Below are positions 46,462 through 64,000 of a stretch of 64,000 bases of DNA, piece after piece. Numbering within the stretch: position 1 is the first letter of the stretch; each line of letters begins with the position of its first letter. The DNA comes from a virus. Lineage: Duplodnaviria > Caudoviricetes. Under the pieces are notes generated by a model. That model made no database searches. It saw only the letters and a list, made by a program, of their open reading frames with translations, and was not told the DNA's origin. The stretch is taken from the IMG/VR virus record IMGVR_UViG_3300031994_000011, positions 107,959-171,958 of that record, one strand, 5' to 3'. A program made the position numbers and the translations under genes.

Positions 46462-46573
46462 TCCCATTTTTCTTTTTTCAATAACTTTGGATGTAATACA
46501 TCCAAAGTGCTCTCTTGCATAATCCAAAGGATTATGCTAAAATAAGACATAATCAGAAAGGAGGTCAGTAAAA

Positions 46574-47043: not shown

Positions 47044-47182
47044 TACGCAGGCCTTCGGGCCTTGCGAAAGTTGGATGTAATACATCCAAAATGAAAATGA
47101 TCGAAGGGGTTGACATTCTCTATTGATAGGTGTATAATGAGTGTAGTTCCAAGAGGGACACAAAAAGAAGGAGGACACAAAA

Positions 47183-47350: not shown

Positions 47351-47479
47351 AAAAAGCAAGGCGAAAGCCTTGCTTTTTTCTACGCATAATTGGATGTAAT
47401 ACATCCAAAAAGCGTACTTGCAATCTTGTCTTGTTTGTGCTATACTTGTACCATAAAGAAAGCAAGGGAGGCCATCACA

Positions 47480-47782
47480 ATGTTGGAAATGCTCAAGTCT
47501 CTGAAAAACTCTGACGGCGCAACTCTGAAAAATTACAAGTCTGTTTCTTACAAGACTGGTTGGCAAGTAGCCGATCACGGGCTGGAATGCCGCACCGCGG
47601 AGGAAGCTGCTGCCGCGATTGACTCTTTCAATGGGAGCTGCGGGATCTGGTACGAAAACGGCGTGTATTACATCGATCACAGCTTCCGCGTCAAGACGAA
47701 AAAGGAAGCTCTTTCCATCGGCCGCGCGCACAATCAAATTTCCATCTTGAAATGGTCCGATATGTCTCTGGTGTACTGCTAA
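47480..47782 (+). CDS. Early protein, 100 aa
   Basis: SD GGAGG; start refined to MLEMLK. Confidence 0.75.
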   Translation: MLEMLKSLKNSDGATLKNYKSVSYKTGWQVADHGLECRTAEEAAAAIDSFNGSCGIWYENGVYYIDHSFRVKTKKEALSIGRAHNQISILKWSDMSLVYC

Positions 47783-47908
47783 GGCAGTACCCAGTTTCAG
47801 CATTTGGATGTATTACATCCAAAAACTCCTCTTGACTTTATGTGGTGGTTGTAGTATTATATACTTGTCCGAAGGGAAAAAACAGATTTTCAAGGAGGTT
47901 TATTAACT

Positions 47909-48109
47909 ATGTCTTATTCTTACGAACTGACCGCCCGTTTCCCCGTCATGGTCCGCGTGTACACCAGCGCCGGCGAGATCGTCGAACATTGCGCGCGCTC
48001 TCTCCGCGCCGCGCATGGGTGGTTTGCGCATTGCGCGGCCGAAGAATACTTTGAAGGACACCCCGTGCGGGTGGAATATGAATTTTACGAAGGGTACAGG
48101 TGGGGATAA
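47909..48109 (+). CDS. Small early protein, 66 aa
   Basis: SD AGGAGGT; terminator over the stop codon. Confidence 0.7.
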   Translation: MSYSYELTARFPVMVRVYTSAGEIVEHCARSLRAAHGWFAHCAAEEYFEGHPVRVEYEFYEGYRWG

Positions 48110-48209
48110 CCCACCTGTTGTTTTTTGGATGTAATACATCCAAAAAGGACTCTTGACTGTATTTCCCCTTTATGCTATAATGATACCATCAAAGAAGGAG
48201 GTAACAGCA

Positions 48210-48344
48210 ATGAGGTATGTGAAGCAGTTTAACAAGGCGCGCAAGGAATGGTGGATTTTCCGCGTGACGATGGACGGCGCCGAACTGACGAAGGTTTTTA
48301 AGACGGAAAAAGCTGCCGACAGCTGGATCCGCAAAAACACTTAA
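48210..48344 (+). CDS. Small early protein, 44 aa (family A)
   Basis: SD AAGGAGGT; KEWWIF..ELTKVFKTE.AD.WI shared with 46909. Confidence 0.75.
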   Translation: MRYVKQFNKARKEWWIFRVTMDGAELTKVFKTEKAADSWIRKNT

Positions 48345-48587
48345 GAGCTGGGCGGTATAACCGCCCAATTTCATTTTATTTTTGTTTTAATGATATTAAA
48401 AAAATTGTATATATAAAAATTATAAAATAAAACCCCACTCAATTTCATTTTTAAATATAATAAAAATTTTCAAAAATGAAAATTGGATGTAATACATCCA
48501 AAACCACCCCTTGACTTTATAGACCGGTTATGCTATTATATACTTGTCCGAAGGGACAAGAGATAAAAAAGAAAGAAGGACACAAAA

Positions 48588-48866
48588 ATGAAGAAATCTG
48601 TTAACGGTCACAATTACGCGCAGGCGAAAGAAATCATCTATGAAGACGGACGGCGTGAGCTGGTGAGCTACACCACAACCGTGATCGAAATCACGGCGGA
48701 CGGCTGGATGACCGTACACGGGCTGTACAGCCGCACTACGATCAAACACATCGGGTGGTTTATGCGTGAGATCGGCCTTACGTACCAACACGCGAAAAGA
48801 GCATACGAACGGCGCGACATTGAACAATTCAACGTTTACACCGGGGAGGTGAAGGAGGTGGCGTAA
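48588..48866 (+). CDS. Early protein, 92 aa
   Basis: Promoter, SD and terminator; LVSYTT...GLYSRTTIKHIGWF. Confidence 0.75.
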   Translation: MKKSVNGHNYAQAKEIIYEDGRRELVSYTTTVIEITADGWMTVHGLYSRTTIKHIGWFMREIGLTYQHAKRAYERRDIEQFNVYTGEVKEVA

Positions 48867-48990
48867 GCCACCTCTTTTTTTCATCTTCTAATTGGATGTA
48901 ATACATCCAAAACGTCCACTTGCTTTTTCAGGCATTCTGTGGTATACTTATATCATCAAGTGAGGGGTTGATCCCCAGAGGGAGGCCACT

Positions 48991-49137
48991 ATGTGGTATG
49001 TTTGTGATGAGTTCGGGTTCGCGTGGAGCAAGGGCATAGAAACTCTTGAGGAGGCGCAGCTGCAGCTGGAAGAGCTGCGCGCCGATGCCCGCAAAAAGGG
49101 CTGGGACTGGGGCTTTGAGATTGAAAAGCGGGGCTGA
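48991..49137 (+). CDS. Small early protein, 48 aa
   Basis: SD GGAGG; MWYVCDEFG... Confidence 0.65.
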   Translation: MWYVCDEFGFAWSKGIETLEEAQLQLEELRADARKKGWDWGFEIEKRG

Positions 49138-49268
49138 CCCGCTTTTCTTTTTATCACGCAGATTGGATGTAATACATCCAAAATGAATAGTTGACTTTCT
49201 TAAGATACTATGATATACTTATACCATCAAGTGAAGGACAACACTTAAAAACCAGAGAGGAAACTACA

Positions 49269-49442
49269 ATGTATCAGATTGTCAGGGTTTATGATGATGG
49301 CGCCACCGCAGCAGAGACCGCCCCTTCCTTCGTTTCCGCGCTGACCGCTTGCACGATCTACCTTGAGGATCCGAGCTGCATCGCAATAAAAATCAAGGAT
49401 CTCCGGGACAACAAAACCGTCATGGAATACTGGGCGGATTAA
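49269..49442 (+). CDS. Small early protein, 57 aa
   Basis: Leader hairpin motif; MYQIVRVY... Confidence 0.7.
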   Translation: MYQIVRVYDDGATAAETAPSFVSALTACTIYLEDPSCIAIKIKDLRDNKTVMEYWAD

Positions 49443-49556
49443 CCGCCCTTTTCTCGTTTGGATGTAATACATCCAAAATCCGAGATTGACTTTTCTATGA
49501 TTATATGTTATCATATACTTGTCCGAAGGGATAACAAATGAAAGGGGATTGAAACT

Positions 49557-49796
49557 ATGTGGCTTTTCTACTCTTACACTGATGGCTATATTCCTATGGG
49601 ATCTGATGGACAAATGAAAGTGCCTTCTTCTATGCGTTCAATGAAAAGCATCCAGAAGCTGGCAACGGCCTTCCTCGGCAAGCGAGCTGGGAGCGTGTAC
49701 CTCATGACCAGCTGGACGCAGGCGATGAGCGAGCTGGGACCGCGCGCGTTTGAAGAATATATCTTTCGCAATGGAAAGAAGGTTGCTCACTCATGA
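49557..49796 (+). CDS. Small early protein, 79 aa
   Basis: Promoter, SD and terminator. Confidence 0.7.
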   Translation: MWLFYSYTDGYIPMGSDGQMKVPSSMRSMKSIQKLATAFLGKRAGSVYLMTSWTQAMSELGPRAFEEYIFRNGKKVAHS

Positions 49797-49883
49797 GCAA
49801 CCTTTCTTTTTTAGTTAATATTGGATGTATTACATCCAAAATACCTTATTGACTTATTTCATTTTTCATGCTATACTATATTT

Positions 49884-50056
49884 GTCGAAAGGAAGAAAGG
49901 AGAGATGAAAAAATGACTCCCCCGCATTAAAGTAAGCCAGCGCATAAGATGCTTTATGCGGCGGCACTATTAAACGGAGAGCATCCTCCCGTTCCAGAAA
50001 GTGGCGGAGCTGGAGCGATTGAGCCAAACTGGACGATCAGCGCAATCGTCCAGTTT
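49884..50056 (+). ncRNA. Putative structured small RNA (only mini-ORFs MKK and MTPPH)
   Basis: Palindrome and promoter, then hairpins (gcataag...ttatgc) and an aaactggacgat/atcgtccagttt terminator; no ORF of note. Confidence 0.4.
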
Positions 50057-50152
50057 ATTTATATTGGATGTATTACATCCAAAAACGACCGTTGACTTTC
50101 TCACCCCTTTATGGTATACTTAAACCATCAAAGGAAAGGAAGGTAACAAACT

Positions 50153-50479
50153 ATGACGGAAAATATGACCTATCATTGCAGGGTTGAACGTGCTGACCGC
50201 GTGAACTGGATTATCAATGAAATCGGTTTGGGGCAGATTGTCAAGGAAAAGTATGGCAACATCAACGGCAAAGCTGCAACCTACACTTGCATCACCGATA
50301 CTGGCGTGACCATCATCAAGACGGGCGACAAGAAAGCAATCATCACTATGTATATCACCACCGCGCGGGAGCTGGTAGCTGTATACGGCGGGCAGAAAAA
50401 AATCCCTCTCGCCCTTCGGAAAAAGGTTGACCACAATCAGAGCAAATACATCAGGAACGGGAAAACAGTTTGGGCCTAA
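50153..50479 (+). CDS. Early protein, 108 aa
   Basis: Promoter, SD and terminator. Confidence 0.75.
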   Translation: MTENMTYHCRVERADRVNWIINEIGLGQIVKEKYGNINGKAATYTCITDTGVTIIKTGDKKAIITMYITTARELVAVYGGQKKIPLALRKKVDHNQSKYIRNGKTVWA

Positions 50480-50575
50480 CGGCCCAAATTTTATTTGGAT
50501 GTAATACATCCAAAAACCCCTCTTGCATTTCTCATAAAAATATGATATTATATAACCATGAAAGGGGTGTGTGAA

Positions 50576-50782
50576 ATGACTACAACGTGGCACTTTGAAG
50601 TATGGGGCGAGGACAGCGACCTTTTTGGTGAGCAGTTCTTTGTAGAGGTCGAAGGCAACCTTGACACGGCGAAGGCGAGGGCTATGGCGATCGCGCAAGA
50701 AAATTTTCCCGGCGAGCTGCTGAAATGCTGGGGACGTGTTTCTAAGCTGACAGCTGAAATGGCTGGATATGATACCTACTAA
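50576..50782 (+). CDS. Small acidic early protein, 68 aa
   Basis: MTTTWHFEV...AEMAGYDTY. Confidence 0.7.
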   Translation: MTTTWHFEVWGEDSDLFGEQFFVEVEGNLDTAKARAMAIAQENFPGELLKCWGRVSKLTAEMAGYDTY

Positions 50783-50909
50783 GGCGCGAAAGCGCCTTTT
50801 AGAGTTTGGATGTATTACATCCAAATTCTCTTCTTGCATAAATCCACCTTCTATGTTATAATGTTTGTGAAAAGAGGAAGGATACCTCACAAACCAGAAA
50901 GGCACTACT

Positions 50910-51347
50910 ATGACTATTTGGTTCGATATGGATGGCACAATTGCGAATCTGTACGCTGTTGAAGGCTGGCTTGACTATCTCATTAACGAAAATGTTTATC
51001 CTTATGCGAAAGCTGAAACCATGCTTAATTTTTCTTCCTTCGCAAAGCTGCTGAACAAGCTCCAGAAAAAGGGCTACAAAATTGGCATTATCTCGTGGAT
51101 GAGCAAATGCGGCTCTGAAAACTATAATCTCGCCGTTGAGACCGCAAAACGCGCTTGGCTCGCTCGGCACCTTCCTTCGGTTGAATGGGACGAAATTAAA
51201 ATTGTCCGTTATGGCACCGATAAATACATCACTTGTGGCGGCGGCATTCTGTTCGATGATGAACAGGGAAACCGTGATGGTTGGAAGGATAGAGCATATG
51301 AACCTTGCAAAATTATGGAAGTATTAAAAGAACTGCTTAACAGTTAA
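50910..51347 (+). CDS. HAD-superfamily phosphatase (5'(3')-deoxyribonucleotidase-like)
   Basis: Motif I IWFDMDGTIA and motif IV ILFDD. Confidence 0.8.
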   Translation: MTIWFDMDGTIANLYAVEGWLDYLINENVYPYAKAETMLNFSSFAKLLNKLQKKGYKIGIISWMSKCGSENYNLAVETAKRAWLARHLPSVEWDEIKIVRYGTDKYITCGGGILFDDEQGNRDGWKDRAYEPCKIMEVLKELLNS

Positions 51348-51489
51348 TGCAATGAGCGCGGCGAGCGCTCCCGTATTGGATGTAATACATCCAAATCACA
51401 TTTCAAAAAAAGACTTGACTTTTCCTTTTTACGTGATAAAATATATATGAAAGCGGAAGGAAAACCGCCCAAACCAGAAAGGTTATGAA

Positions 51490-52476
51490 ATGGCCAAAAC
51501 TCTCAAGTTCCTTGTAGTTGATACTGAAACCGCCACCCTGCCCATGTGCTCTGAAATTGCGTATGATGCTGAAAGCAAGAAAAAGCTCGCAATCGCTAAG
51601 CCCCTCATTTATGATATTGGCTGGAACATCACTAACCGCAAGGGCGAAATTCTCGGTCATAAGCAGTTCCTCATCGCAGAGACTTTCTGTGTTCCTCAGG
51701 TTTTTAATACTGCCTATTATGCAGAGAAGCGGCCCATCTATCTGAAAATGCTTGAACGTGGTGAAACCGTCATTAAAACTTGGGACGAAGTTATGACTAT
51801 CTTCCTTCAAGACATGCGGTCCGTTGATGCCGTGGGCGCGTTTAATTCCATGTTTGATTTTAAGAAGGCTATCCCCTTCACCGAACTGTATATCCGCAAT
51901 CTATATAGCCCCCGTTATAGCGATTGGGAAAAAATTCAGTATGATTCTTGTATGAGAATTTTGAGCAACAACAGACCCGAAAGAAACCCGAATTTTGATG
52001 CCGATAATTTTTCCTTCCGTGGCGAAAGCTTCCCCCTGTTCGACCTTTGGGGCCTTGCCGCAAAGATTCTTCTGAATAATGCCACCTATAAGAAGAATTG
52101 CCTTGACCATGATTTGCTTTCCTCTTCCGGCCTTTATTTCAAGACAAGCGCAGAATCTACCTATCAGTATATTTGTGATAAATATGATTTTTGCGAAAGT
52201 CATACCGCCTTGGACGACGCCACCATTGAAACCTTTATCCTTTCTAAGATTGCTTCCCGCCATGCTATTAGCATTGGGATTATCTTCTTCCCCTTTAGAG
52301 AACTCGGCGAAACCGTAGAGTTTATCACCCGGCGTAAGGCTCCGAATATTAACGAATGCGAAAAAGTGGCGAATGCGATTCGGGCCCACCTTGAAACGAA
52401 AGAAGAGGGCACCCCCTATTATAGCAAAATGGAAAAGAAACTTGATTTGATTCTTAAGTATCTTGAAAGGGCGTAA
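51490..52476 (+). CDS. DEDDh 3'-5' exonuclease (DnaQ-like), 328 aa
   Basis: VVDTETA, AFNSMFD and HTALDDA motifs. Confidence 0.85.
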   Translation: MAKTLKFLVVDTETATLPMCSEIAYDAESKKKLAIAKPLIYDIGWNITNRKGEILGHKQFLIAETFCVPQVFNTAYYAEKRPIYLKMLERGETVIKTWDEVMTIFLQDMRSVDAVGAFNSMFDFKKAIPFTELYIRNLYSPRYSDWEKIQYDSCMRILSNNRPERNPNFDADNFSFRGESFPLFDLWGLAAKILLNNATYKKNCLDHDLLSSSGLYFKTSAESTYQYICDKYDFCESHTALDDATIETFILSKIASRHAISIGIIFFPFRELGETVEFITRRKAPNINECEKVANAIRAHLETKEEGTPYYSKMEKKLDLILKYLERA

Positions 52477-52593
52477 GCCCTTTTTTCGTTAAAACGAAAT
52501 TGGATGTATTACATCCAATATTTTTCCCTTGACTTTTCTCAAAACTATGCTATAATAAACTTGTCTCAAAGAGACAGAAAGGAAGTAAAAAAT

Positions 52594-52749
52594 ATGACTC
52601 GCGATGAAATCATTAACTTTATTAACAAAGTTCTTCAAACCAATCCACAAGCATTCACACAGGATGAAGTTATTGAAGAAAACTATATTTATATTCCTGC
52701 CATTGAATTGATTAAAGATGCTATCACTGGTGAATGGCGCGCAATTTAA
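52594..52749 (+). CDS. Small early protein, 51 aa
   Basis: SD GAAAGGA; MTRDEII... Confidence 0.6.
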   Translation: MTRDEIINFINKVLQTNPQAFTQDEVIEENYIYIPAIELIKDAITGEWRAI

Positions 52750-53026
52750 TTAGTAAATTATTCTTGACAAAATGAGGAGCAATAAACTCCTCATTTTTAT
52801 TTTTTATAAATATTGGATGTATTACATCCAAATCAACTTATTGACTCCATTTCAAATCTATGCTATACTATCATTGTTCCGAGAGAGAAGGGAAAGTGGC
52901 GCGCGACACTTAACCCCTCTCAAAGAAAAAAAGTTTCAAAAGCCCCTTGACAATCAACCGAATCCATGCTATAATAAATCCGTAAGAAAGAGAAGGACAC
53001 TCTTAAAAAACCAGAAAGGGAAGATT

Positions 53027-53359
53027 ATGAAGAAGTCCACCATGATGAAAATTGCTGACTACATCCGCAATGTTCCCGAACTCGTTGAAGAGTTTGCCGA
53101 AATCGATGCCGAACTCAGCAAGACTGCCGAGAAGGCGAATGCTACCCGAGAACTCTATGGAACCGCACATGACATCGTGATGAGCGTTATGTCTGAAGTC
53201 CCCGCCACGGTGGCTGATATCTTCGCCAAGTGCGAAAGCGAACTCCCCGAAGGTTTTACTAAAGCAAAGGTTCAGTATGCACTCCTTAATTACTGGAAGG
53301 ATGAGGTCGTTAAGATTGATAACGGCAAGCGGTCGCCCATGACTTACCGCAAGGCGTAA
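53027..53359 (+). CDS. Putative winged-helix DNA-binding protein, 110 aa (family B)
   Basis: TVADIF...ELPEGFTKAKVQYAL...W shared with 59932 and 56008. Confidence 0.7.
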   Translation: MKKSTMMKIADYIRNVPELVEEFAEIDAELSKTAEKANATRELYGTAHDIVMSVMSEVPATVADIFAKCESELPEGFTKAKVQYALLNYWKDEVVKIDNGKRSPMTYRKA

Positions 53360-53465
53360 TATTAAGTTAAAAAAGAAAGGACCCTATGAAAATAGGGTCC
53401 TTTCTAATTTCAAAATGAAATTGGATGTAATACATCCAATTTCGTATCACAAAAAGAAAAGGGGA

Positions 53466-53801
53466 TTACTCCCCTTCTTCCTCTTTCTTCTTCTTATTTT
53501 CCCGTTCCTTCGCCTTACGTTCTTTTTCGGCGTTCTTCTCAGCCTTTTCCTTCGCCTTCAATTCCTTTTCAGCCTTCCATTCTTCAGCGGCTTCGTAAGG
53601 GTCGAACGCAGGAGAAATTTTCGTGGGCTTGTACGCCTTGGACTTCACGGTGACTTCAGTCCAGACTTCCTGCCCGTCAATATTCTGCAGGATAGCGAAG
53701 GAAGCATCGGCGAACTGAACAGCTTCATTGGCGTTGAGGACTTCGGTCAGAGCGGTCACAGTCAGGTCACGAGCGGTGGTCTTAATTTCGTTAGCGGTCA
53801 T
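53466..53801 (-). CDS. Early protein with Lys/Glu-rich tail, 111 aa (family C)
   Basis: Inverted cassette with promoter, leader hairpin and terminator. Confidence 0.75.
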   Translation of the reverse strand: MTANEIKTTARDLTVTALTEVLNANEAVQFADASFAILQNIDGQEVWTEVTVKSKAYKPTKISPAFDPYEAAEEWKAEKELKAKEKAEKNAEKERKAKERENKKKKEEEGE

Positions 53802-54040
53802 ACAACTTTCCTTTCTGGTTTTTTAGGCTTTTCCTTGCCTTTGTTATGATTTATTATAGCATGGATTTTAATGATAGTCAAGTGCTTTTTAAAAAATTTT
53901 TTACTTATAACATAACAATATTTGGATGTATTACATCCAATAAATATTAAAATTTTATTACAAAATTTTTAATTACCCCTTGACTTTTTCTTTAAGATAT
54001 GTTACAATTTAATTACAAAAGAAAAGGAGATGTTAAGAAA

Positions 54041-54193
54041 ATGTTGAAACTTATGGGAGTAGTTGGAAGTTTTATGACGGTAATTGGAATCTCCAGCGGC
54101 ATTCTTAATAGGTCCATGCTTGTCATCGCCGCAATTGGTCTTACCCTTATGAGTGTCAGCATTATGTTTCTTCCAAAAAATGATAATTTTTAA
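54041..54193 (+). CDS. Small membrane protein, 50 aa, two hydrophobic helices
   Basis: SD AAGGAG; LMGVVGSFMTVIGISSGIL and MLVIAAIGLTLMSVSIMFL. Confidence 0.65.
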   Translation: MLKLMGVVGSFMTVIGISSGILNRSMLVIAAIGLTLMSVSIMFLPKNDNF

Positions 54194-54368
54194 TAAAAAA
54201 ATACTTGACAAAAATCAAATTTCATGTTATAATTATAATATAAAAAAGGAGGGAGAAAACTTTTGGATATATTACATCCAAACCCCGACTATTGACCCCG
54301 CATGAATTTTATGCTATACTATACCCGTGAAAGGGAAGGAAAACCCCAAACCAGAAGGAGTGTGTTTT

Positions 54369-54776
54369 ATGAGTAAAGCGTCTCTTGAAAATGGTATCCG
54401 TAACGACATTCTCGCCGCCATCTCCGACCTGCTCGGCAAAAAGTATGATACTGATGTCCTTGTTACTGGCAGCAATGAAATCTGTATCCCTTGCCTTGAC
54501 TCTGAAGGGAATGAAAAGTACGCCGTGATTAAAGTTAGCATTCCCCGCGGTGAACGTAGCGGCGGCACCTATAAACCCTATAACGGATACAGTGTTGCCG
54601 AAGATTATGCCGCAGACGTGCAGGAAAGAACCGCTAAAGCCGAAGCACGCGCCGAAAAGAAAGCACACGAAGAAGCAGAGCGGGCGCGCAAGCGTGAAAT
54701 GCGCACCGTGAAGGTCAAAGAAACTGAAATGAAGAAGAAACTTGCCGAAGTGGCAAAACTTGGAAAGGAGGGCTAA
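54369..54776 (+). CDS. Early protein, 135 aa (family C)
   Basis: DSEGNEKYAVIKV and basic/acidic tail, similar to 62165 and 53466. Confidence 0.75.
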   Translation: MSKASLENGIRNDILAAISDLLGKKYDTDVLVTGSNEICIPCLDSEGNEKYAVIKVSIPRGERSGGTYKPYNGYSVAEDYAADVQERTAKAEARAEKKAHEEAERARKREMRTVKVKETEMKKKLAEVAKLGKEG

Positions 54777-54879
54777 GCCCCTCTTTCTTTATTGGATGTA
54801 TTACATCCAAAAATAAATATTGACTTTTTAAAAAACTTATGATATACTTTAATCACAAAATGAAGGGAGTGATTGAAGA

Positions 54880-55125
54880 ATGAAGATTTACGTTGCTACT
54901 GTTAAAAACGACCCTCTTGATACTGCAGATTCTTACGTTCTTGGAGTATACCCAAGCGAAGAAAAAGCAAATGAAAACATTAACAAATGGATAAATTTTC
55001 GTGGCGACAAATTAATTGATTATGCCCGGGAAGAAAGATTCTATCTTTATGATGAAGACGAGGACATGAATTTTCAGATTGACGTTGAAAGCGCCGACCT
55101 TGATAATGAACCTTGCTACGATTAA
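54880..55125 (+). CDS. Small acidic early protein, 81 aa
   Basis: VLGVYPSEEKA motif; promoter and terminator. Confidence 0.7.
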   Translation: MKIYVATVKNDPLDTADSYVLGVYPSEEKANENINKWINFRGDKLIDYAREERFYLYDEDEDMNFQIDVESADLDNEPCYD

Positions 55126-55377
55126 CGGCCTTCGGGCCTTCTTGATTATTGGATGTATTACATCCAAATCAAATAGTTGGCTTCTTAGAGAATCTGTGGT
55201 AATATATAATTGTTCCAAGGGGAAAGGAAAGGAGGCCAGGGTTAAAAAAAACTTAAAAAAAGTTTTGAAAAGCCCTTGACAAACTTCCAAATCTCTGGTA
55301 TAATAAAGATGTTCCAAGAGAGGAACACAAGAAATCGGGAAGGAAAACCCAAGCCAAACCAAAAAGGATTTACCACT

Positions 55378-55458
55378 ATGAAGAAAACCTCTTACGAAGC
55401 CACCTACGCCACTCTGACCTCCATCAACTACGATAACGCCGAAAAGGACATGCTATAA
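55378..55458 (+). pseudogene. Truncated family-B-like gene (26 aa)
   Basis: Full promoter and leader, MKKTSYEATY start resembling the MKKS paralogues, then an abrupt stop followed by an out-of-frame acidic tail. Confidence 0.4.
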
Positions 55459-55489
55459 TAGAGGATAATGAAGAAGAGGAGGAATAAGG

Positions 55490-55657
55490 ATGTTAAGAGA
55501 AGAATTAGTAAAAAATTATTTCTGGCATAAAATGGCGGACCTTCTCGAAGAGGCACAAGAAAATGGTTTCTGCTTCGGCTTTACCAATGGTAACGGCGAA
55601 GTTGTCTATTGGACTGATTCAGAAAGTTTAGATTTTACCGTTGAATCTATTGACTAA
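55490..55657 (+). CDS. Small acidic protein, 55 aa
   Basis: SD GGAGG; MLREELVKNYFWH...; terminator follows. Confidence 0.6.
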   Translation: MLREELVKNYFWHKMADLLEEAQENGFCFGFTNGNGEVVYWTDSESLDFTVESID

Positions 55658-55754
55658 ACAGACTTCGGTCTGTTTGGCCGGCCCGTTAATATAATTGTAA
55701 TAAAATCTTAACACTTTTGTAATTGACTTTCTGGCAAATTATGATATAATATAA

Positions 55755-55910
55755 TTGTTCCAAGGGAGAGAGTGCCCAAGTGGTGTGGTGACGCCCAGCA
55801 AGACCTAACACAGTTCGATTCTGTTCTCCTCTCTCATGCGGTTCCTTCGGAAGGTAATCGGATAATGGCGTAAAAGTGGTTCAAGTCCACGCTCCGCAAA
55901 CCTGGAACAA
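55755..55910 (+). ncRNA. Putative ncRNA with two tRNA-like T-arm modules
   Basis: Promoter TTGACT-17-TATAAT; closing stem TTGTTCCA/TGGAACAA; ACAG-TTCGATT-CTGT and GTGG-TTCAAGT-CCAC arms. Confidence 0.5.
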
Positions 55911-56007
55911 AAAATTTCTAAAAACACTTGACATTATAAGCACTCTGTGCTATAATGAATACACAACAAGGGAAGGAAAACCCTCAAAAACCAGAAGGGA
56001 AATTATT

Positions 56008-56445
56008 ATGACTAAGAAAGACGCTCTTACTATCGCTCTGACCACGCTGACCGCTCCCACCTACGCCAATCCCAGCTTTGACGGTAAGGATACCACTCGC
56101 AAAGAAATTCCCGTTGAAGAAGTCCGTGAAGTCATTACCAAGATGATTGAACAGCTGATGAAGAGGGGCACTACCTCTGATAAGGCGAAGGAAGCCCGTA
56201 AGGCTAAGACCGCCGAAGCTCGCTCTGAACTGGTCAAGACTGTTGCTCCCGTTCTCCGCAAGGCTCTGACCGCCGCTCCCGAGGGTATGACCGCTAAGGA
56301 CTTGTTCGCCGCCTGTGAAAAGGAACTGCCCGAAGGTTTCACCGCCGCCAAGGTTCAGAATGTCCTTCTCCGTGAGATGGCCCCCGAACTGGAAAAGGTA
56401 GAAGAGAAGCGTAAGGCTAATGTTTACCGCCTGATTCAGGGCTAA
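56008..56445 (+). CDS. Putative winged-helix protein, 145 aa (family B)
   Basis: MTAKDLFAACEKELPEGFTAAKVQNVLL. Confidence 0.75.
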   Translation: MTKKDALTIALTTLTAPTYANPSFDGKDTTRKEIPVEEVREVITKMIEQLMKRGTTSDKAKEARKAKTAEARSELVKTVAPVLRKALTAAPEGMTAKDLFAACEKELPEGFTAAKVQNVLLREMAPELEKVEEKRKANVYRLIQG

Positions 56446-56604
56446 TGCCCAGCCGCCTTCGGGCGGTTTTTCTTTTTTCGGAAAAATTTGGATGTAATAC
56501 ATCCAAATCTAAAATTAAAAAGAGTCTTGACAAGACAGCTATTATATGATAAAATAAGACCATGAAAGAGGAAGGACACCTCCCAAACCAGAAAGTGAAC
56601 TACG

Positions 56605-56868
56605 ATGACGAAGAAAGTGATTGTTGAATGGACTTACACCGATGATTATGGCAGGTATGGCACCGGCAAGCGGAAACTGTTCGACACGATGGAAAAAGCC
56701 AATGAATGGATTGAAGCGATGAAAAAGAAGAATGGCGGTTACTTCCGTGTTATCCGTACTTACGAAATCAACTACGAAAAGTATCTGGAGATTGAAGAAC
56801 TCAAGAAGAAAGTGAACGAACTGTTCAACAAAATCGACGAACTGAATGAAGAGTTGGAGGTGAAATAA
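56605..56868 (+). CDS. Early protein, 87 aa, C-terminal coiled coil
   Basis: Promoter, leader and terminator. Confidence 0.7.
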   Translation: MTKKVIVEWTYTDDYGRYGTGKRKLFDTMEKANEWIEAMKKKNGGYFRVIRTYEINYEKYLEIEELKKKVNELFNKIDELNEELEVK

Positions 56869-57055
56869 ACAAAGGGGCGAAAGCCCTTTGTTTTTTATAG
56901 AGTTAGTTAGATACCTCTAACCGCCAGCCTGGTGCCTGGTGCTAAAAAATTTTTTTTAAAAATTTTGAAAAAAGGTGTTGACAACGCCCGCCCGGCATGG
57001 TATAATAAAGCCATGAAAGGGAAGGAAACCCTCCAAACCAGAAAGGATAACTAAA

Positions 57056-57316
57056 ATGAAAATTTATAAAATCGCTATGAGAAAGAACACTGGTTCCATC
57101 AAAGAAGTGCTTTTTACCTCAAAAGCAAAAGCGGTCGGTTATATCATCGGAAGGATGGACGCGGAAAAAGAAGGATGCCGCGCAATTGAAAAAAAGACAG
57201 ATAACTGGGAATATGATAAGAAAACAATTTGCGCGATTAAAAATTGGAATAAATTCTATTATATCATTGATGGCGGTTCAACAAAAGTCACAATTGAAGA
57301 AATCTTAGTATTATGA
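57056..57316 (+). CDS. Early protein, 86 aa
   Basis: Promoter, leader and terminator. Confidence 0.7.
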   Translation: MKIYKIAMRKNTGSIKEVLFTSKAKAVGYIIGRMDAEKEGCRAIEKKTDNWEYDKKTICAIKNWNKFYYIIDGGSTKVTIEEILVL

Positions 57317-57461
57317 GGGCTGAAAGCCCTCTTTTTTTGATCAAAGGTGATCAAAAATTTTTTAAAAAAATCAAAAAAAAGTGTTGACAAGCCAGCTATT
57401 GTGTGATAAAATAAAGCCATGAAAGGGAAAGGAAAATCCCAAACACCAGAAAGGTTAAAAT

Positions 57462-57644
57462 ATGTGTTACGAAGAAAAGTGCCCCATCTGCAATTCCGAA
57501 GATTATGAAGTAGAAGATTACTCTGATACCTTTGACACCTTTAGCGGAGAACAGTGGTGGGTTTGCGTATGCCCTAATGGTCACAAGTTTTCTATCACAA
57601 AAGTATACGACCTTAAAGATGTAATTATCGAACCAGAAGAGTGA
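57462..57644 (+). CDS. Zn-ribbon microprotein, 60 aa
   Basis: CPIC...CVCPNGH. Confidence 0.7.
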   Translation: MCYEEKCPICNSEDYEVEDYSDTFDTFSGEQWWVCVCPNGHKFSITKVYDLKDVIIEPEE

Positions 57645-57746
57645 CCGCTTCGGCGGTTCACGTCATTGGATGTAATACATCCAAAAACTCATGCTTGACT
57701 TTCTTATTTCATTATGCTATACTATCACTGTGAGGAGGGAAAAGAA

Positions 57747-57899
57747 ATGAGCAAAAAACAGAAGAACGCGCCCCGTTCCAACTATGAAGTCTATCGGTCT
57801 ATCCGTAAAGACTGGGGCGTTATCAATCCAGTGACCAAAGTTATCCCTGACAAGCGCAACAAAAAGTCAAAACATAAGAAAGGATGGGATGAAGAATAA
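57747..57899 (+). CDS. Small basic protein, 50 aa
   Basis: SD GAGGAGG; IRKDWGVINPVTKVIPDKR. Confidence 0.65.
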   Translation: MSKKQKNAPRSNYEVYRSIRKDWGVINPVTKVIPDKRNKKSKHKKGWDEE

Positions 57900-58090
57900 T
57901 GATGTGTCCACAGTGTGAAAATAGTGAAGTTGAAACTTGGATTGTTAATGACGAAACTAATATCAGGACTGATTTTAATGGAAAGGACTGGATGTCTATT
58001 ACTCAAGGTAGTTGTTGTAAAGAGTGCGGCTACATATGGTATGAACATTACTCAGGCTTGGCAACAGATTTTTACTGGACTAAAGATTGA
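57899..58090 (+). CDS. Zn-ribbon microprotein, 63 aa
   Basis: CPQC...CKECG. Confidence 0.65.
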   Translation: MMCPQCENSEVETWIVNDETNIRTDFNGKDWMSITQGSCCKECGYIWYEHYSGLATDFYWTKD

Positions 58091-58105
58091 AAGGTGGGAT
58101 GAAGA

Positions 58106-58360
58106 ATGATGAAATTTAAAAACATCAGAATGTATCTTGACAAAAAGGGCATTCGTTATTATGAATCTGATAACGGACAAAAACTTGTCATTAGGGCGTG
58201 TGCTTTTGATAGTGATAAAGAAAGTAATTTTTATGACTATGGAGAGCCCTACAAAAAACCTAAGTGCTATAATAAAGAAAAATTCTTTCAAGAGTTATTT
58301 AATGACACCCGTATCATAATTGTAGATTGCTCTGAATGTTGCGCTTGTGCAGGTTGGTAA
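58106..58360 (+). CDS. Small protein, 84 aa, Cys-rich C-terminus
   Basis: Intact ORF within the operon. Confidence 0.6.
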   Translation: MMKFKNIRMYLDKKGIRYYESDNGQKLVIRACAFDSDKESNFYDYGEPYKKPKCYNKEKFFQELFNDTRIIIVDCSECCACAGW

Positions 58361-58378
58361 AGAAAGGTGGAATGAAAA

Positions 58379-58540
58379 ATGATGCTTATTTGGAAAGCAC
58401 TTATAAGAGACGAATTAGGAAATGTCAAATATCGTTCTCCCGAATTTAATAAAAAATGGATTGCGATAAAATGGGCAAGCAATATAATTAATAAGCACAA
58501 AAAATTGGATGAATGGTTTTATGAAGTATGGTGTGAATAA
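58379..58540 (+). CDS. Small protein, 53 aa
   Basis: SD AAAGGTGG; MMLIWKALIRDE... Confidence 0.55.
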   Translation: MMLIWKALIRDELGNVKYRSPEFNKKWIAIKWASNIINKHKKLDEWFYEVWCE

Positions 58541-58557
58541 GGAAAGGCGGGATAAAA

Positions 58558-58746
58558 ATGATTGAGTCAATAGGCAATCAAATAATAGGTTATCAAGTAA
58601 TAGGCAGAAAATTCGGCCCAACTATTACAATTTGGAAAACTAAACAGCAGGCAGAAGAATATCTAAAAACTTTAGAAGAACATCTAAAAACTTTAGAATT
58701 TTTTGAGGATAACTGGAGAATTATTGAAGTTATTATTAAAAATTGA
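58558..58746 (+). CDS. Small protein, 62 aa
   Basis: SD; contains a tandem duplication atctaaaaactttagaa. Confidence 0.6.
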   Translation: MIESIGNQIIGYQVIGRKFGPTITIWKTKQQAEEYLKTLEEHLKTLEFFEDNWRIIEVIIKN

Positions 58747-58760
58747 AAGGATATGATAAA

Positions 58761-58973
58761 ATGAGTTCCATCAATGCCACCACCGCTTATCCTCTGTGCC
58801 CCTATTGTGATATTAAAGTTGAAGATATTGATACTCCATACTATGAACTTACTGATGAAAAAGCCATTTTTCAGCGCGTTGGAACGTGCCCTCATTGTAA
58901 ATGCTCTTTTGAATGGACCGAAGTCTATAAATGGGATGCCAAGTTCTACGACCTTAAAGAAATAGACAATTGA
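58761..58973 (+). CDS. Zn-ribbon microprotein, 70 aa
   Basis: CPYC...CPHC; SD GAAAGGA. Confidence 0.65.
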   Translation: MSSINATTAYPLCPYCDIKVEDIDTPYYELTDEKAIFQRVGTCPHCKCSFEWTEVYKWDAKFYDLKEIDN

Positions 58974-59114
58974 GGCGCAAGCCTCCTAATTGGATGTATT
59001 ACATCCAAAATATCATACGGGTGGCAAAAATTTCCAGTTGACAATTGATTCACTTTATGCTATACTCTATACATAAAGTGAAGGAAAACACTCCAAACCA
59101 GAAAGGGATTTAAA

Positions 59115-59873
59115 ATGGTGTACTGCATGATTTTCGACACCGAGACCACTGGACTGGACAAGCCGTTTTGCTATGACGTGGGCTATACTATCTACGATAT
59201 GGATAACCGCGTATCCGTTAAAGAAATGCACTATATCGTAGAACAGAACTGGCACAACCTGCCCCTGTTTGAGTCCGCTTACTATAAAGACAAGCGTCCT
59301 CTGTACGTTCAGCTTATGCGTGCCCGCAAGGCGACAATGGAAAAGTATGGATATATCATGCAGGCAATGATTCGTGATATTAAAACATACGACATAAAAG
59401 ACGCCTATGCTTACAATTCTGACTTTGATGAAAAAGTGTTTAATTTTAATTGTGACTGGTTCAAGTGTATCAATCCTTTTGATAATGTCGCAATTCACGA
59501 TATTTGGGGCTATGCTTCTGAATTTATCTTTTCTCCTGATTACTTTGACTTTTGTGAGCAGAACAGCCGTTTTACTGATACTGGAAATTATAAAGGCAGC
59601 GCCGAGGTTGTGTATCAGTATCTGACCGAAAATCCCGATTTTGTAGAACAGCATATGGGACTTTATGACGGAGAGATTGAAACTGAAATTTTGGCGGCCT
59701 GTATCGAAAAAGGTGCGGAATGGGGAATGGATTATAAAGTAAAAAAGATTCTGCCCCGTAAAGTCAAAAAGCCTTTTGTGGTCAAGATTAACGGCAAAAA
59801 AGTATATGAAGGGAATTATGTAAAGAAGTATGTTCGGAATGATTCCTACAGCTTCGCGACCGAAGAGGGCTAA
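59115..59873 (+). CDS. DEDDh 3'-5' exonuclease, 252 aa (paralogue of 51490)
   Basis: IFDTETTG, AYNSDFD and HMGLYD motifs; SAYY..KRPLY shared with 51490. Confidence 0.85.
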   Translation: MVYCMIFDTETTGLDKPFCYDVGYTIYDMDNRVSVKEMHYIVEQNWHNLPLFESAYYKDKRPLYVQLMRARKATMEKYGYIMQAMIRDIKTYDIKDAYAYNSDFDEKVFNFNCDWFKCINPFDNVAIHDIWGYASEFIFSPDYFDFCEQNSRFTDTGNYKGSAEVVYQYLTENPDFVEQHMGLYDGEIETEILAACIEKGAEWGMDYKVKKILPRKVKKPFVVKINGKKVYEGNYVKKYVRNDSYSFATEEG

Positions 59874-59931
59874 CGCCCTCTTTTTAGTTTGGATGTATTA
59901 CATCCAATTTTTCTATACAAAAAAAGAGGGC

Positions 59932-60270
59932 TTACGCCCTCTTCTGGTATTCATTTACTTTTCCCTCGGTCTTAATCACTTCATCGCCCCAGTATTCCCG
60001 CATAGCGTACTGAAGTTTAGACTTCGTGAAACCTTCGGGCATTTCGTCCTTCACGGCCTCCCAAATATCAGCAATCGTCATCGGCCTATCGGACAGCTTG
60101 GTGAACACCACATCATGCGCAGTAGCATACAGGGTACGATTCGCCGCCGCCTTATCCTCGCCCTTCTTGAGTTCAGCTTTCAGTTCATCGACAGCATCAG
60201 CGACATCAGAGGGCAGACCATTCTGGAACGCGAAGTAGTTAACGAGAGACTTCATAGAGGACTTCTTCAT
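59932..60270 (-). CDS. Putative winged-helix protein, 112 aa (family B)
   Basis: ANRTLYATAHDVV...EMPEGFTKSKLQYAMREYW. Confidence 0.75.
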   Translation of the reverse strand: MKKSSMKSLVNYFAFQNGLPSDVADAVDELKAELKKGEDKAAANRTLYATAHDVVFTKLSDRPMTIADIWEAVKDEMPEGFTKSKLQYAMREYWGDEVIKTEGKVNEYQKRA

Positions 60271-60373
60271 ATTAAATACCTTTCTGGTTTTTAGGACTTT
60301 TCCTTGTCCTTTGTGTATTTATTCTACCACACTTTGTGGGAGAAGTCAAGAGGTTTTGAAAAATTTTTTTTTG

Positions 60374-60688
60374 AAAGATTCGGAAGGTCTAACGGTCCCT
60401 ATTACATCATCCTCGCCACAAGGAGCAACCGAATCTTTTAGTTTCAAGAGAGACGGTGGGAGAATAAGAAGTTCCGTTTCTTGCCTATATTTTACTTCCA
60501 GTTAGCCACGGAAAAACCTATCGGAAGGGTTATGGCGCCGAGAGGGATTTTCCTTTCCTCTCTCAACTTTTGTTTCAAGGGAGATGGTGGGGGACTTTCA
60601 CTCCGCTTCCAACTTGCGCACGTTGGGTCACATACCGTCCAAAAAATTGTAGCTCTCAACTTTCTGGTCTGCTCTCTCCCTTAGAACA
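60374..60688 (-). ncRNA. Putative multi-module structured ncRNA
   Basis: Promoter at 60722-60694 and no credible ORF. Two repeated units AAAGTTGAGAG...CCCACC(A/G)TCTC(C/T)CTTGAAAC and an AAGATTCGG/CCGAATCTT stem. Confidence 0.45.
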
Positions 60689-60834
60689 ATATTATAATAT
60701 CATAGATTTAAGGAAAAGTCAATTATCCTTATTGGATGTAATACATCCATTTTTAAATTAAAAAAGGGTTGACTATTATCAAATTTTCTGTTATACTATT
60801 CATGTAAAGAAACTCATTACAATTTGGGAGGAGA

Positions 60835-61047
60835 ATGAAAATGATTAGCTTCCGCGAGTATGTTGAAAGTAAAATGAACATTGAAATGCCTAAAGGCAGC
60901 ATTCCCGGTTCTTGGTTTAGTGAACATAACTTACCAATGATTGTTCAATGCTCTTGTTGTACTATGACAATGGCGGCGCCCTCTGCTTGGATTGATGAAG
61001 AAGGATATACTTATTGCAGTTGTTGCGCAGAGATTGACAAAGAGTAA
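60835..61047 (+). CDS. Zn-binding microprotein, 70 aa
   Basis: CSCC...CSCC. Confidence 0.7.
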   Translation: MKMISFREYVESKMNIEMPKGSIPGSWFSEHNLPMIVQCSCCTMTMAAPSAWIDEEGYTYCSCCAEIDKE

Positions 61048-61175
61048 AGCAATCCCGGGCAACCGGGCTTTAGGATGTAATACATCCAAAAACCATACTT
61101 GCATTTTTTATAATCTTATGATATACTCTATATGAAAAGTGAAGGAAAACACTAAAACACCAGAAAGGAACGAAA

Positions 61176-61463
61176 ATGTTCGGATGCCACTACACCCACA
61201 AGTTTATTGAAACTTCTAAAGGTATTCTTCTTATTGATGTTGCTGACACTGGTTATACTGGCTGGGAAGGTGCTTTTGCAGAAGTTGACCTTGACTCTTT
61301 TGCAGAACAGTGGGGCGATAATAATTATACTTTTGAAGATGTTGTAAAATATGCCGAAGATTTTGATTGCATTTCAGATTGGGAAATTGTAAGCAACGGG
61401 CATAGGAATCCCGAAGTAGCAGAACGCAATGTATACCGGGCAATTAAAGGACTCACCACCTAA
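61176..61463 (+). CDS. Acidic early protein, 95 aa
   Basis: Promoter, leader and terminator. Confidence 0.7.
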   Translation: MFGCHYTHKFIETSKGILLIDVADTGYTGWEGAFAEVDLDSFAEQWGDNNYTFEDVVKYAEDFDCISDWEIVSNGHRNPEVAERNVYRAIKGLTT

Positions 61464-61582
61464 GCTCTTCGGGGCTATTGGATGTAATACATCCAGTATT
61501 TACTATTGACATTCTATCTCTTTTATACTATAATAATACCATCAGATGAAGGAAAACATCTTAAACCAGAAAGGTCATTAAA

Positions 61583-61864
61583 ATGGCAAATCTGTCTGAA
61601 ATCATTGCAGAACTTAATAATCTTAAGCGTGAAGAAACTCTCTGCTCTAAAGTACAGGGCCGCAGGAATTGGGTTATCAGGACGGAATTTATTAACAATA
61701 AAATGTATGTTAGGTATGCGGGTTCCTTCGGTGGCGCGGACAGATTCGGCTACCTTACTGAAAGTCTCCAGTATATGGCAGAACATCATGTCAGGTGGTA
61801 TGTATTTACATATAAAAAAGACTATACAGAAACACTTAATAAACTTAATCCCCTCCGCCTTTAA
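61583..61864 (+). CDS. Early protein, 93 aa
   Basis: Promoter, leader and terminator. Confidence 0.7.
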   Translation: MANLSEIIAELNNLKREETLCSKVQGRRNWVIRTEFINNKMYVRYAGSFGGADRFGYLTESLQYMAEHHVRWYVFTYKKDYTETLNKLNPLRL

Positions 61865-62164
61865 TGGCGGTCAGGGCATTGGATGTAATACATCCAAATT
61901 CTGAAACGAAAAATTACTTGACTTTCATTAAAATTTCTGCTATACTATATATGTCAAGAGGAACTGACGACCATTCCCAAGAAATCTTGGGCGGGCTTGC
62001 AAGAAAGACGCGGGTTAGCGGCGCAGAAGATTGGCTAACAAGAAGAGGACAGAAAATTTTTTGAAAAACTTTTCAAAAACCTCTTGACAATTCCCTCCTA
62101 CTATGATATAATAAAGCTATCAAGAGAAGGAAAACTCTTAAAAAACCAGAAAGGGCTAAAGTGT

Positions 62165-62527
62165 ATGGCTACTATTTCTAAATCTGTTGTTGATTCTGAC
62201 CTCCGCGCCCGTGTGTTCGCCGATATGTTCACTTCACTGGAAAAAGCAGAGCTTTCCGAAGGAACGTATCAGAAAATCAATGACCGCCAGTTTGGTGTGA
62301 TTCTGACCGATAAGAATGGTACCGAACGCTATGTCCGCATTGGCGTCATTGTCGCCGAGGAGCGCGAGGATATGACCGCGCGGGAACTGATGGAATCTGA
62401 AATTCGGGCCTATAACGAAAAGCAGGCGGCAAAGGCCGAAAAGGCCGCCAAACGTGCGGAAAAGGCGGCCAAGGATAAGGCCAAGCGCGAGAAGGAAGAA
62501 ACCAACAGCGATAGCCCCGACCAGTAA
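62165..62527 (+). CDS. Early protein, 120 aa (family C)
   Basis: TDKNGTERYVRIGV...KAEKAAKRAEK. Confidence 0.75.
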   Translation: MATISKSVVDSDLRARVFADMFTSLEKAELSEGTYQKINDRQFGVILTDKNGTERYVRIGVIVAEEREDMTARELMESEIRAYNEKQAAKAEKAAKRAEKAAKDKAKREKEETNSDSPDQ

Positions 62528-62684
62528 CCTTAATAAGGGAATTGTGGTGCAAACCGCAATTTCTTTTTTCTCAAGAAATTGGATGTATTACATCCAAATT
62601 CATCTCTTGCTTTTTCTAAAAACTTATGCTATACTATACTCACAGAAGTGAAGGAAAACACTTAAAACCAGAAAGGATTTTAAG

Positions 62685-62906
62685 ATGAAAAGAACTAAAC
62701 ATAAAATGACAAAATATCACATAACAATTAAACGTGCCCAACAGTATTTTCTTATTTACTATCGTGAAATATTCGGAGAATGGCCTTATTATAACGACAC
62801 CCCTTATCCTATTCTATTGAGAGCACATAAAAATTATAATCGTGCTGTTAATAATCCAAATTCATTATATAATAAAGTAAATCATCCCAATAAGCAACAA
62901 AAATAA
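62685..62906 (+). CDS. Basic early protein, 73 aa
   Basis: Promoter and leader. Confidence 0.6.
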   Translation: MKRTKHKMTKYHITIKRAQQYFLIYYREIFGEWPYYNDTPYPILLRAHKNYNRAVNNPNSLYNKVNHPNKQQK

Positions 62907-63003
62907 AAACTGTTAAATTAAATTTTTTATTGCTTTTTTCACAATCTATTTATAATATAACCATAAGTGAAGGAAACACTTAAAAACCGAAAGGATAAAA
63001 TCT

Positions 63004-63363
63004 ATGAAAATTATTACCACCTACGTTGCTTTTGATGATGAAGAGTTCAGCACCATGGAAGCGTGTCAGGCATACGAAAATTTTCATGTAGGATTGATGA
63101 TTGAAGCCGAAGATTGCTTTTCTTTCTTCGATGTCGGAATGCGTCAAATCTCACTTGACTATTCACACAATATTGAAGAAATGCTTGATGCTTTTGTTCG
63201 GGCATACGATGAGTGTTATTATATCATCGTAAAGAAAAATCCTTCTGATAATCTCAAAAGATTTATCAAAGACTATGAAGGACTCATACTGCCCGTTCAA
63301 AAAGGCTTTTGGCACTATAACAGCACTACCAGCGAATGGGAAAGAGTTACTGAAGACGCGTAA
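63004..63363 (+). CDS. Early protein, 119 aa
   Basis: YVAFDDEEFSTMEACQAYE N-terminus. Confidence 0.75.
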   Translation: MKIITTYVAFDDEEFSTMEACQAYENFHVGLMIEAEDCFSFFDVGMRQISLDYSHNIEEMLDAFVRAYDECYYIIVKKNPSDNLKRFIKDYEGLILPVQKGFWHYNSTTSEWERVTEDA

Positions 63364-63478
63364 GCGTCTTCTTTGGATGTAATACATCCATTTTCCCTCT
63401 TGACCTTTTAAAAATTTTATGATATACTCTCTTTGTAAGAAGTGAAGGAAACACTCAAAAAACCAGAAAGGCGTTATT

Positions 63479-63829
63479 ATGAAAATTACTCGCGTACTAA
63501 CTTACAACATTAGCGAAGATTATGTTCGTGATTTCTTTGACAATTGCTGGTGGGAAGATAAAACCGAACCCGATGAAATTGATTATGATTTTTTCATTGA
63601 CGGCCTCAGGGAAGAAGGCTATGACAACGAAGAAATTCTCCCCGATCAGGGCACTAAAGAAAAAATAATGCAAATTTGGCAAGAAGAATGTGATAAATAT
63701 CATAGAGAATTGGAAAACCCAACAGCAATAAAAGAGCAGATTGCTGAAGAACTTCAGCACTATAGAAGTGAAATGGAATATTATAAAAATAAGGTTGCTC
63801 AACTTGAAAAACAGTTGAAAGACGCGTAA
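63479..63829 (+). CDS. Acidic early protein, 116 aa, C-terminal coiled coil
   Basis: Promoter, leader and terminator. Confidence 0.75.
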   Translation: MKITRVLTYNISEDYVRDFFDNCWWEDKTEPDEIDYDFFIDGLREEGYDNEEILPDQGTKEKIMQIWQEECDKYHRELENPTAIKEQIAEELQHYRSEMEYYKNKVAQLEKQLKDA

Positions 63830-64000
63830 GCGTCTTTTTCTTTTTTGGATGTATTACATCCAAATAGCGCGCTTCCGCGCATTAGGAATGAAACAAGCGC
63901 AACTTTCCATTGATGCGCGGCGGAGCATCCTTTTTTACAACAGGATGATATTCCCACCATTCGGAACCGTCATATTCCTGACGATCGTAATAACTACCGT

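Follow-up and report, generated by a model that had tools for sequence, protein, structure and literature searches.

What reads the short leader that precedes the early genes of an uncultured gut or rumen phage, and by what means? The question is raised by a virus record of 171,958 bp that has terminal repeats (Caudoviricetes; IMG/VR record IMGVR_UViG_3300031994_000011). Its final 64,000 nucleotides (nt), positions 107,959 to 171,958, are referred to here as the window. A small hairpin is found close upstream of the Shine-Dalgarno (SD) sequence of 20 early genes, of which 19 lie in the window and one lies at the left genome end. A first-pass annotation had described it as a covarying hairpin with an invariant AAGGA loop and proposed a translational regulon, read by host CsrA or by a phage RNA-binding protein. 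On the covariation set out below, the leader is predicted to be an H-type mini-pseudoknot of ~36 nt that lies against the ribosome-binding site. Its most likely role is that of a cis-acting module that would enhance or insulate translation at this site and perhaps stabilize the mRNA. The host is probably a member of the Clostridia, judging from the promoters, the SD type and the bacterial genome bins that carry the motif.

Helices of the leader

Parsing of 212 copies gives a uniform anatomy. Helix 1 has most often 4 base pairs (bp; range 3-7), with G:U at 13 of 912 pairs, and closes a loop of 7-8 nt that consists of AA, two bases assigned to helix 2 and 3-4 further bases, mostly A. An A-rich linker of 5-6 nt with an invariant AAA at its end leads to the 2-bp helix 2, which is followed immediately, and never after a spacer, by AGAAAGG; the start codon lies ~8 nt beyond the SD. 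The distance from the start of the loop to helix 2 is 16-19 nt in 199 of the 212 copies, and the conserved single-stranded bases are all A, as in A-minor-packed pseudoknots.

Helix 1 is backed by strong covariation. In 150 copies from relatives, 204 cells were changed on both sides of the stem, compared with 68 ± 10 after shuffling (a count reached in 0 of 500 shuffles), and the covariation score was 0.68, whereas it did not exceed 0.14 with slid partners. The hairpin of the earlier description is thus a covarying one. By secondary-structure prediction the hairpin alone is weak (mean -2.9 kcal/mol, closing-pair probability 0.64), which makes extra tertiary contacts plausible, and the SD is mostly unpaired. 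When applied to a plain MAFFT alignment, RNAalifold gave no structure, since loops and linkers vary in length between copies; a covariance-model alignment and gapless subsets were used instead.

The second helix is formed between loop and linker. Loop bases 3-4 (GG) pair with a CC located just 5' of the SD, and relatives contain a second class in which the loop carries CG and the linker likewise CG. The four combinations were compared in a 2x2 test with four equal-sized IMG/VR scans and a single objective filter, which required a start codon, an A/C linker and a stem of 4 bp or more:

Loop GG, linker CC: 126 of the 188 listed matches pass the filter, with 39 different stems
Loop CG, linker CG: 21 of the 123 listed matches pass, with 10 different stems
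Loop CG, linker CC: 1 of the 119 listed matches passes
Loop GG, linker CG: 1 of the 114 listed matches passes

Rare variants recovered by relaxed parsing differed jointly at loop bases 3-4 and at the two bases before the SD, and a full swap to CC:GG was seen once (L038:7172-7222). A gapless alignment has the covarying pair as G:C in 29 rows, as C:G in 10 and unpaired in none; its rows were drawn from the matched scans, so the 2x2 scans constitute the unbiased test. The copies are related by descent and the counts are not independent events. Selection on pairing is nevertheless supported by the variety of helix-1 sequences in either class and by how few single-step intermediates there are. Both classes also coexist within one phage (L081, L060) and behind one orthologous promoter.

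Because of this covariation, the loop AAGG is best seen as one strand of helix 2, and not as a GGA or an SD copy that is read as sequence. This bears directly on the CsrA reading, in which host CsrA or a close analogue would bind the loop GGA together with a second site at the SD. The spacing invites such a comparison: the AAGGA loop lies ~21 nt upstream of the SD, and the flagellin leaders of CsrA-positive genomes in the order of one motif-carrying bin are equally spaced. CsrA/RsmA sites such as that of the hag/fliC leader in Bacillota also present A(N)GGA on a hairpin some 20 nt ahead of the SD, and Bacillus subtilis CsrA uses two GGA stem-loops on hag (PMC13443453). The likeness to the native flagellin leaders is real but not close. 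Those of CsrA-positive genomes have GC stems of 7-8 bp, loops of 4-8 nt with GGA followed by a pyrimidine, and an AAGGAGG-type SD, whereas the phage-type stems of 4 bp are weak. In contrast to CsrA/RsmA sites, moreover, the loop GG pairs with the linker, and CG can take its place when the linker changes to match.

The composition of the copies speaks against CsrA as well. Loops reading AACGA, with neither GGA nor any SD-like sequence, occur in the same leader arrangement in 21-22 bona fide leaders, and the fifth loop base may be G, C or T (AAGGG, AAGGC and AAGGT loops). The SD-side site gives a mixed picture: of 150 copies, 79 have an A behind AGAAAGG and so complete a GGA there, while 51 have G, 11 have T and 9 have C. 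The CsrA family PF02599 was not found in the phage. Five motif-carrying bacterial bins, of uncertain completeness and host assignment, have neither CsrA nor flagellin, and one of these five holds a truly integrated leader element that adjoins the host GAPDH gene. Within the order, the csrA gene is present in 23 of 121 genomes (19%), and none of the five genomes that match the leader model is among them, so that the motif genomes tested are without CsrA. On the loop-linker covariation, with single-step mixed classes of 1 + 1 against 126 + 21, the AACGA class and the CsrA-less phage and bins, we reject both the loop as a CsrA-type GGA site and CsrA as the reader, which we consider highly improbable.

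What stands of the proposed regulon is a structured, covarying leader at the ribosome-binding site of a set of early genes, for which a translational role is reasonable; the CsrA reader falls away. A phage RNA-binding protein is a possible reader that would have to recognize shape instead of GGA.

One further idea, a dimeric protein that reads one word twice, was considered in view of a bacterial copy of the leader (L245) that repeats a 7-mer in loop and linker. It was dropped when a scan for such repeats returned only chance matches in coding sequence.

Leader copies in the phage and its relatives

A covariance model built from the phage leaders finds exactly 20 places in the 171,958 bp at 40-60 bits, with the next best at 15 bits. 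All 19 sites of the first-pass annotation are present, each with a sigma-A promoter, stem, A/C linker, SD box and start codon. The copies are as follows; those in the window without a score were called by both parse and covariance model.

49226..49261, +: leader of a 57-amino-acid open reading frame (ATG at 49269); covariance model 53.8 bits
50871..50903, +: leader of a deoxyribonucleotidase-like gene (50910-51347)
51450..51483, +: leader of an exonuclease-like gene (51490-52476; phrog_20187)
52985..53020, +: leader of a 110-amino-acid gene (53027-53359)
53809..53843, -: leader of a 111-amino-acid gene (53801-53466)
54330..54359, +: leader with a 3-bp stem, of gene 54369-54776
55334..55368, +: leader with a 3-bp stem and another 5' hairpin ahead, of a short open reading frame at 55378
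55966..55999, +: leader of gene 56008-56445; covariance model 60.5 bits
56565..56596, +: leader of gene 56605-56868
57015..57047, +: leader of gene 57056-57316
57422..57455, +: leader of gene 57462-57644
59074..59107, +: leader of an exonuclease-like gene (59115-59873); covariance model 60.4 bits
60278..60313, -: leader of a 112-amino-acid gene (60270-59932)
61135..61169, +: leader of gene 61176-61463
61541..61575, +: leader of gene 61583-61864
62119..62155, +: leader of gene 62165-62527
62643..62677, +: leader of gene 62685-62906
62962..62995, +: leader of gene 63004-63363, with one base missing at the junction of the second helix strand and the SD; 40.3 bits, the weakest copy
63438..63472, +: leader of gene 63479-63829
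L001:346-378, -: 20th leader, outside the window at the left genome end; loop AAGGG instead of AAGGA

In each of the 20 copies the stem is 3-6 bp long and entirely Watson-Crick, and at least 11 different stems are used. The loop is AAGGA followed by 2-3 bases that are A, C or T, the left-end copy excepted, and then comes the A/C-rich linker. The loop can therefore be called invariant within the window, but not at the left genome end, nor in relatives, which vary its fifth base (G, C or T) and include the class with AACGA. A 12-nt box that ends in AGAAAGG is exact in 12 copies and has 1-2 changes in the others, with the ATG 7-10 nt further on; at no more than two mismatches the box occurs 30 times, compared with 7.6 expected. 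A search of the phage for antisense or sponge RNA detected no complement of the box outside the minus-strand copies themselves. The window also holds a 339-nt non-coding transcript (60352-60690, minus strand; fold z-score -1.5) with a hairpin that has a AAAGGAAAA-type loop; ~100 nt upstream of this hairpin, part of the SD box recurs in sense orientation. The transcript may be a leader relic or serve as a decoy.

Beyond this phage, hundreds of copies occur in related uncultured phages of IMG/VR. An exact-pattern scan located the leader pattern in at least 119 stretches, and ~146 of the 188 matches listed are complete and immediately follow a sigma-A promoter, with dozens of distinct stems among them; one orthologous promoter is followed by different stems in different phages. 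A search with the covariance model yielded 205 copies in 82 loci. In a scan of bacterial genomes, the matches listed all lay in Clostridia bins. The model matches 5 of the 121 genomes of the order mentioned above, and one of these has 46 copies on co-binned phage contigs; no leader was found on ordinary host genes of the 121 genomes, the copies located being confined to phage and mobile DNA. An example of the latter is contig JAFUOR010000011.1 of a Clostridia metagenome-assembled genome (L184:1-8000), in which an integrated element adjoins the host GAPDH gene and encodes an integrase followed by three leader genes, with a serine resolvase downstream. One of its leaders has an ACGGA loop and one, that of the third gene, is intercistronic. 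This element and two further leader-bearing ones (L128, L170) have no detectable protein in common with the phage in the DNA compared.

Among sequenced phages, Phage Phass-1 (L759, GenBank OQ749652.1), which NCBI places in the 'Caudoviricetes code 15 clade', is the closest GenBank phage by the exonuclease-like protein (35% identity). No leader copy was found in the 18 kb of it that were examined, and no GenBank phage carrying the leader was found. Rfam has no match to the leader at the gathering threshold or at E ≤ 5. A resemblance of the box to the core of the PyrR binding loop was also followed up and discarded, as no Rfam PyrR match was obtained. A literature search on the box sequence and on leader pseudoknots of phages gave nothing relevant; a catalogue of 8,495 viral RNA candidates (PMC10690425) could include the leader.

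The leader marks early genes that are conserved among the relatives, namely two paralogues of a DEDD-like exonuclease, a deoxyribonucleotidase and several families without an assigned function, while cassettes without it hold mostly orphan genes. Searches with the conserved early proteins gave no informative family or structure match. Four paralogues of 110-145 amino acids with a common C-terminal ELPEGF-type motif (53027-53359, 53466-53801 on the minus strand, 56008-56445, and 59932-60270 on the minus strand) all bear the leader; this family is conserved across ~29 related loci, and no match to it was obtained in Pfam, PHROG or PDB.

The ribosome and other candidate readers

The account that we tentatively favor is a pseudoknot leader that acts in cis at the ribosome-binding site of core early genes and is read by the ribosome itself. 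A self-contained cis element is favored by the fixed register to SD and start codon, the restriction to phage and mobile DNA, the presence of both pair types in one phage, the placement on early genes conserved among relatives, the occurrence in elements that have no detectable protein in common with the phage and the conserved unpaired bases, which are all A. Such a leader would be a standard, insulated ribosome-binding module in which the SD stays accessible regardless of the downstream gene. Since AGAAAGG pairs with the last seven bases of Bacillota-type 16S rRNA, helix 2 may stack end-to-end on the duplex of SD and anti-SD; the 3' end of the 16S rRNA would then abut the loop G, giving a nicked helix of 9 bp. 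The 16S genes of the candidate host family do end in the Bacillota-type tail. An extended anti-SD, considered as an explanation of the ACC before the SD, was ruled out by this usual tail: the ACC is not explained by anti-SD pairing.

The leader may additionally slow 5'-end-dependent decay, because in most transcripts only a few bases separate it from the predicted 5' end: the stem begins 8-15 nt past the -10 box in ~190 of 221 copies (transcription starts predicted). Here it can be compared with the 5' stabilizers of Bacillus (aprE leader, STAB-SD, SP82 polypurine), which place a structure and/or purine element within a few bases of the 5' end, followed by the ribosome-binding site, and which act on strongly expressed messages, phage early RNA included (PMC3997798). 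Those stabilizers consist of stable hairpins or of genuine SD copies that the ribosome reads, whereas the purine loop of the leader is half of a pseudoknot helix, its hairpin reaches only -2.9 kcal/mol and some copies are internal.

Several observations weigh against the ribosome-read cis module. Helix 2 has only 2 bp, and only one of these two pairs commonly covaries. A GC:GC class of helix 2 was sought and not found among the matches listed, which implies that the inner pair is constrained by something beyond pairing. About 5% of the copies have no nearby promoter and a few are preceded by another 5' hairpin; with internal copies and copies behind a hairpin, 5'-end protection would not be the sole role. 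Stacking would need a 16S rRNA that ends in U, and for Bacillus, 16S 3' termini that carry an additional A are reported alongside others that lack it (PMC5427494). Finally, a specific binding partner would also explain why the SD box is strictly invariant over its whole length.

That last point leads to a protein reader: the pseudoknot as a translational operator for a trans-acting, phage-encoded RNA-binding protein that shuts off or tunes ~20 early messages together. We regard this as unlikely. It would account for the identical operator-like element at the ribosome-binding site of many early genes, for hairpins as weak as is typical of protein-stabilized sites, for an SD box that is invariant beyond the needs of anti-SD pairing and for the restriction to phage and mobile DNA. 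T4 offers precedents, with gp32 acting on its own leader pseudoknot and RegA on ~30 early messages (PMC3014915). The gene 32 leader of T4, T2 and RB69 is, like the leader studied here, an H-type pseudoknot in a phage mRNA 5' leader, and its coaxial helices govern translation initiation (PMC3014915). However, the T4 pseudoknot belongs to a single gene, is located 67 nt ahead of the start codon and nucleates cooperative binding of gp32 over an A/U-rich stretch, whereas the present leader serves ~20 genes per genome and directly abuts the SD. No single-stranded DNA-binding protein was recognized among the ~20 leader-bearing genes. Within one phage, a protein reader would need to recognize leaders of both the GG:CC and the CG:CG type, and no protein is common to the phage and the elements L184, L128 and L170 in the DNA compared. 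Nor was a candidate RNA-binding protein found, the conserved early proteins being without informative family or structure matches.

Still less likely, in our view, is a very small riboswitch with a preQ1-I-like fold that senses a metabolite, an ion or a signaling nucleotide and gates the early regulon. The architecture fits: the preQ1-I aptamer is an H-type pseudoknot of ~35 nt with a helix 1 of 4-5 bp, a 3' loop that is rich in A and runs along the minor groove, and a short helix 2 at or near the SD (PMC11625349), and the leader matches this class (RF00522) in topology, in the A-rich 3' loop and in a helix 2 beside the SD, with both helices backed by covariation. A helix 2 of 2 bp would profit from a ligand. 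The leader differs from preQ1-I in that its helix 2 is that short and excludes the SD bases, that it precedes ~20 unrelated phage early genes instead of queuosine genes, and that the specificity cytosine (AC/UC before the 3' strand of helix 1) is absent, two columns there being A in 145 and 138 of 150 copies. The RF00522 covariance model likewise gave no match at the gathering threshold or at E ≤ 5. Without the defining cytosine and an Rfam match, the leader is not a member of the preQ1-I family. The CG:CG class has ACGA in both partners, which is reminiscent of the loop-loop pairing of guanidine-II riboswitches. Against any riboswitch stand the lack of an Rfam match, the functionally unrelated genes, the lack of leader matches on host genes of the 121 genomes and the lack of an obvious ligand pocket, since the only conserved unpaired bases are adenines.

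The position of the leader 8-15 nt after the -10 box in most copies, and the terminator that ends every cassette, might alternatively point to transcription. The pseudoknot could stabilize a promoter-proximal pause that couples RNA polymerase to the first ribosome, as pseudoknot-stabilized pausing has been described for a preQ1-I riboswitch (PMC11625349), or it could act in nut/put-like antitermination past the terminators between cassettes. We judge this improbable: the register is fixed to the SD and start codon and not to the promoter, promoterless intercistronic copies exist (for example the third gene of L184), and no boxA-like or known pause consensus was seen.

Taken to its widest extent, the leader would represent an uncatalogued class of structured RNA with hundreds of copies in Clostridia phages of gut and rumen, a 36-nt pseudoknot that docks on the ribosome by stacking on the end of the SD:anti-SD duplex at the 16S 3' terminus, or senses a ligand or phage protein, and gates a core early regulon. 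This is possible, though we hold it to be doubtful as a whole. The leader is among the smallest pseudoknots with covariation support in both helices and is not in Rfam, and it occupies the meeting point of early phage messages and the ribosome. Its mechanism would reveal how infection is launched by the many uncultured Bacillota phages of a large clade that is related to the stop-codon-recoded 'code 15' clade. In annotation the leader marks true start codons and early genes of these phages, and Gram-positive synthetic biology could use it as a compact and portable module for translation.

Layout of the early region

The array of small-gene cassettes spans from ~44.9 kb to the end of the window. 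In each cassette a terminator and a 19-bp palindrome precede a near-consensus sigma-A promoter, the -10 box of which is TG-extended; the leader comes next, followed as a rule by a single small gene. The palindrome is perfect, with only its central base variable, and sits between each terminator and the next -35 box. There are 37 copies at window positions 44934-63863 and one more at G000:C1:425-443; none occur elsewhere in the 172-kb genome. It looks like a candidate operator for a dimeric DNA-binding protein.

'Class B' cassettes (44962-50600) are without the hairpin and have a strong GAAGGAGG-type SD directly after the predicted transcription start; its distance from the -10 box equals that of the pseudoknot loop in the other cassette class. 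The class B genes are mostly orphans. Tandem promoters are present at 52841-52946, 55180-55275, 55723-55927, 60349-60770 (minus strand) and 61918-62083. At these sites the palindrome-linked promoter leads into a non-coding stretch of 60-340 nt that opens with a common ATTGTTCCAA-like word of 10 nt, and a second promoter, located after long A/T tracts that resemble UP elements, drives the gene with the pseudoknot leader. One promoter-driven RNA (55752-55915, plus strand) has two T-arm-like hairpins inside a closing stem; its fold z-score is only -1.56, and ARAGORN called no tRNA in it.

Six small, tightly overlapping genes lie under one promoter at 57714-58973, without pseudoknot leaders and with repeated ATGA-type junctions, and several of them encode zinc-ribbon-like proteins with CxxC motifs. 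Upstream of the array, a group I intron is located at 40036-40270 on the minus strand (95 bits against Rfam).

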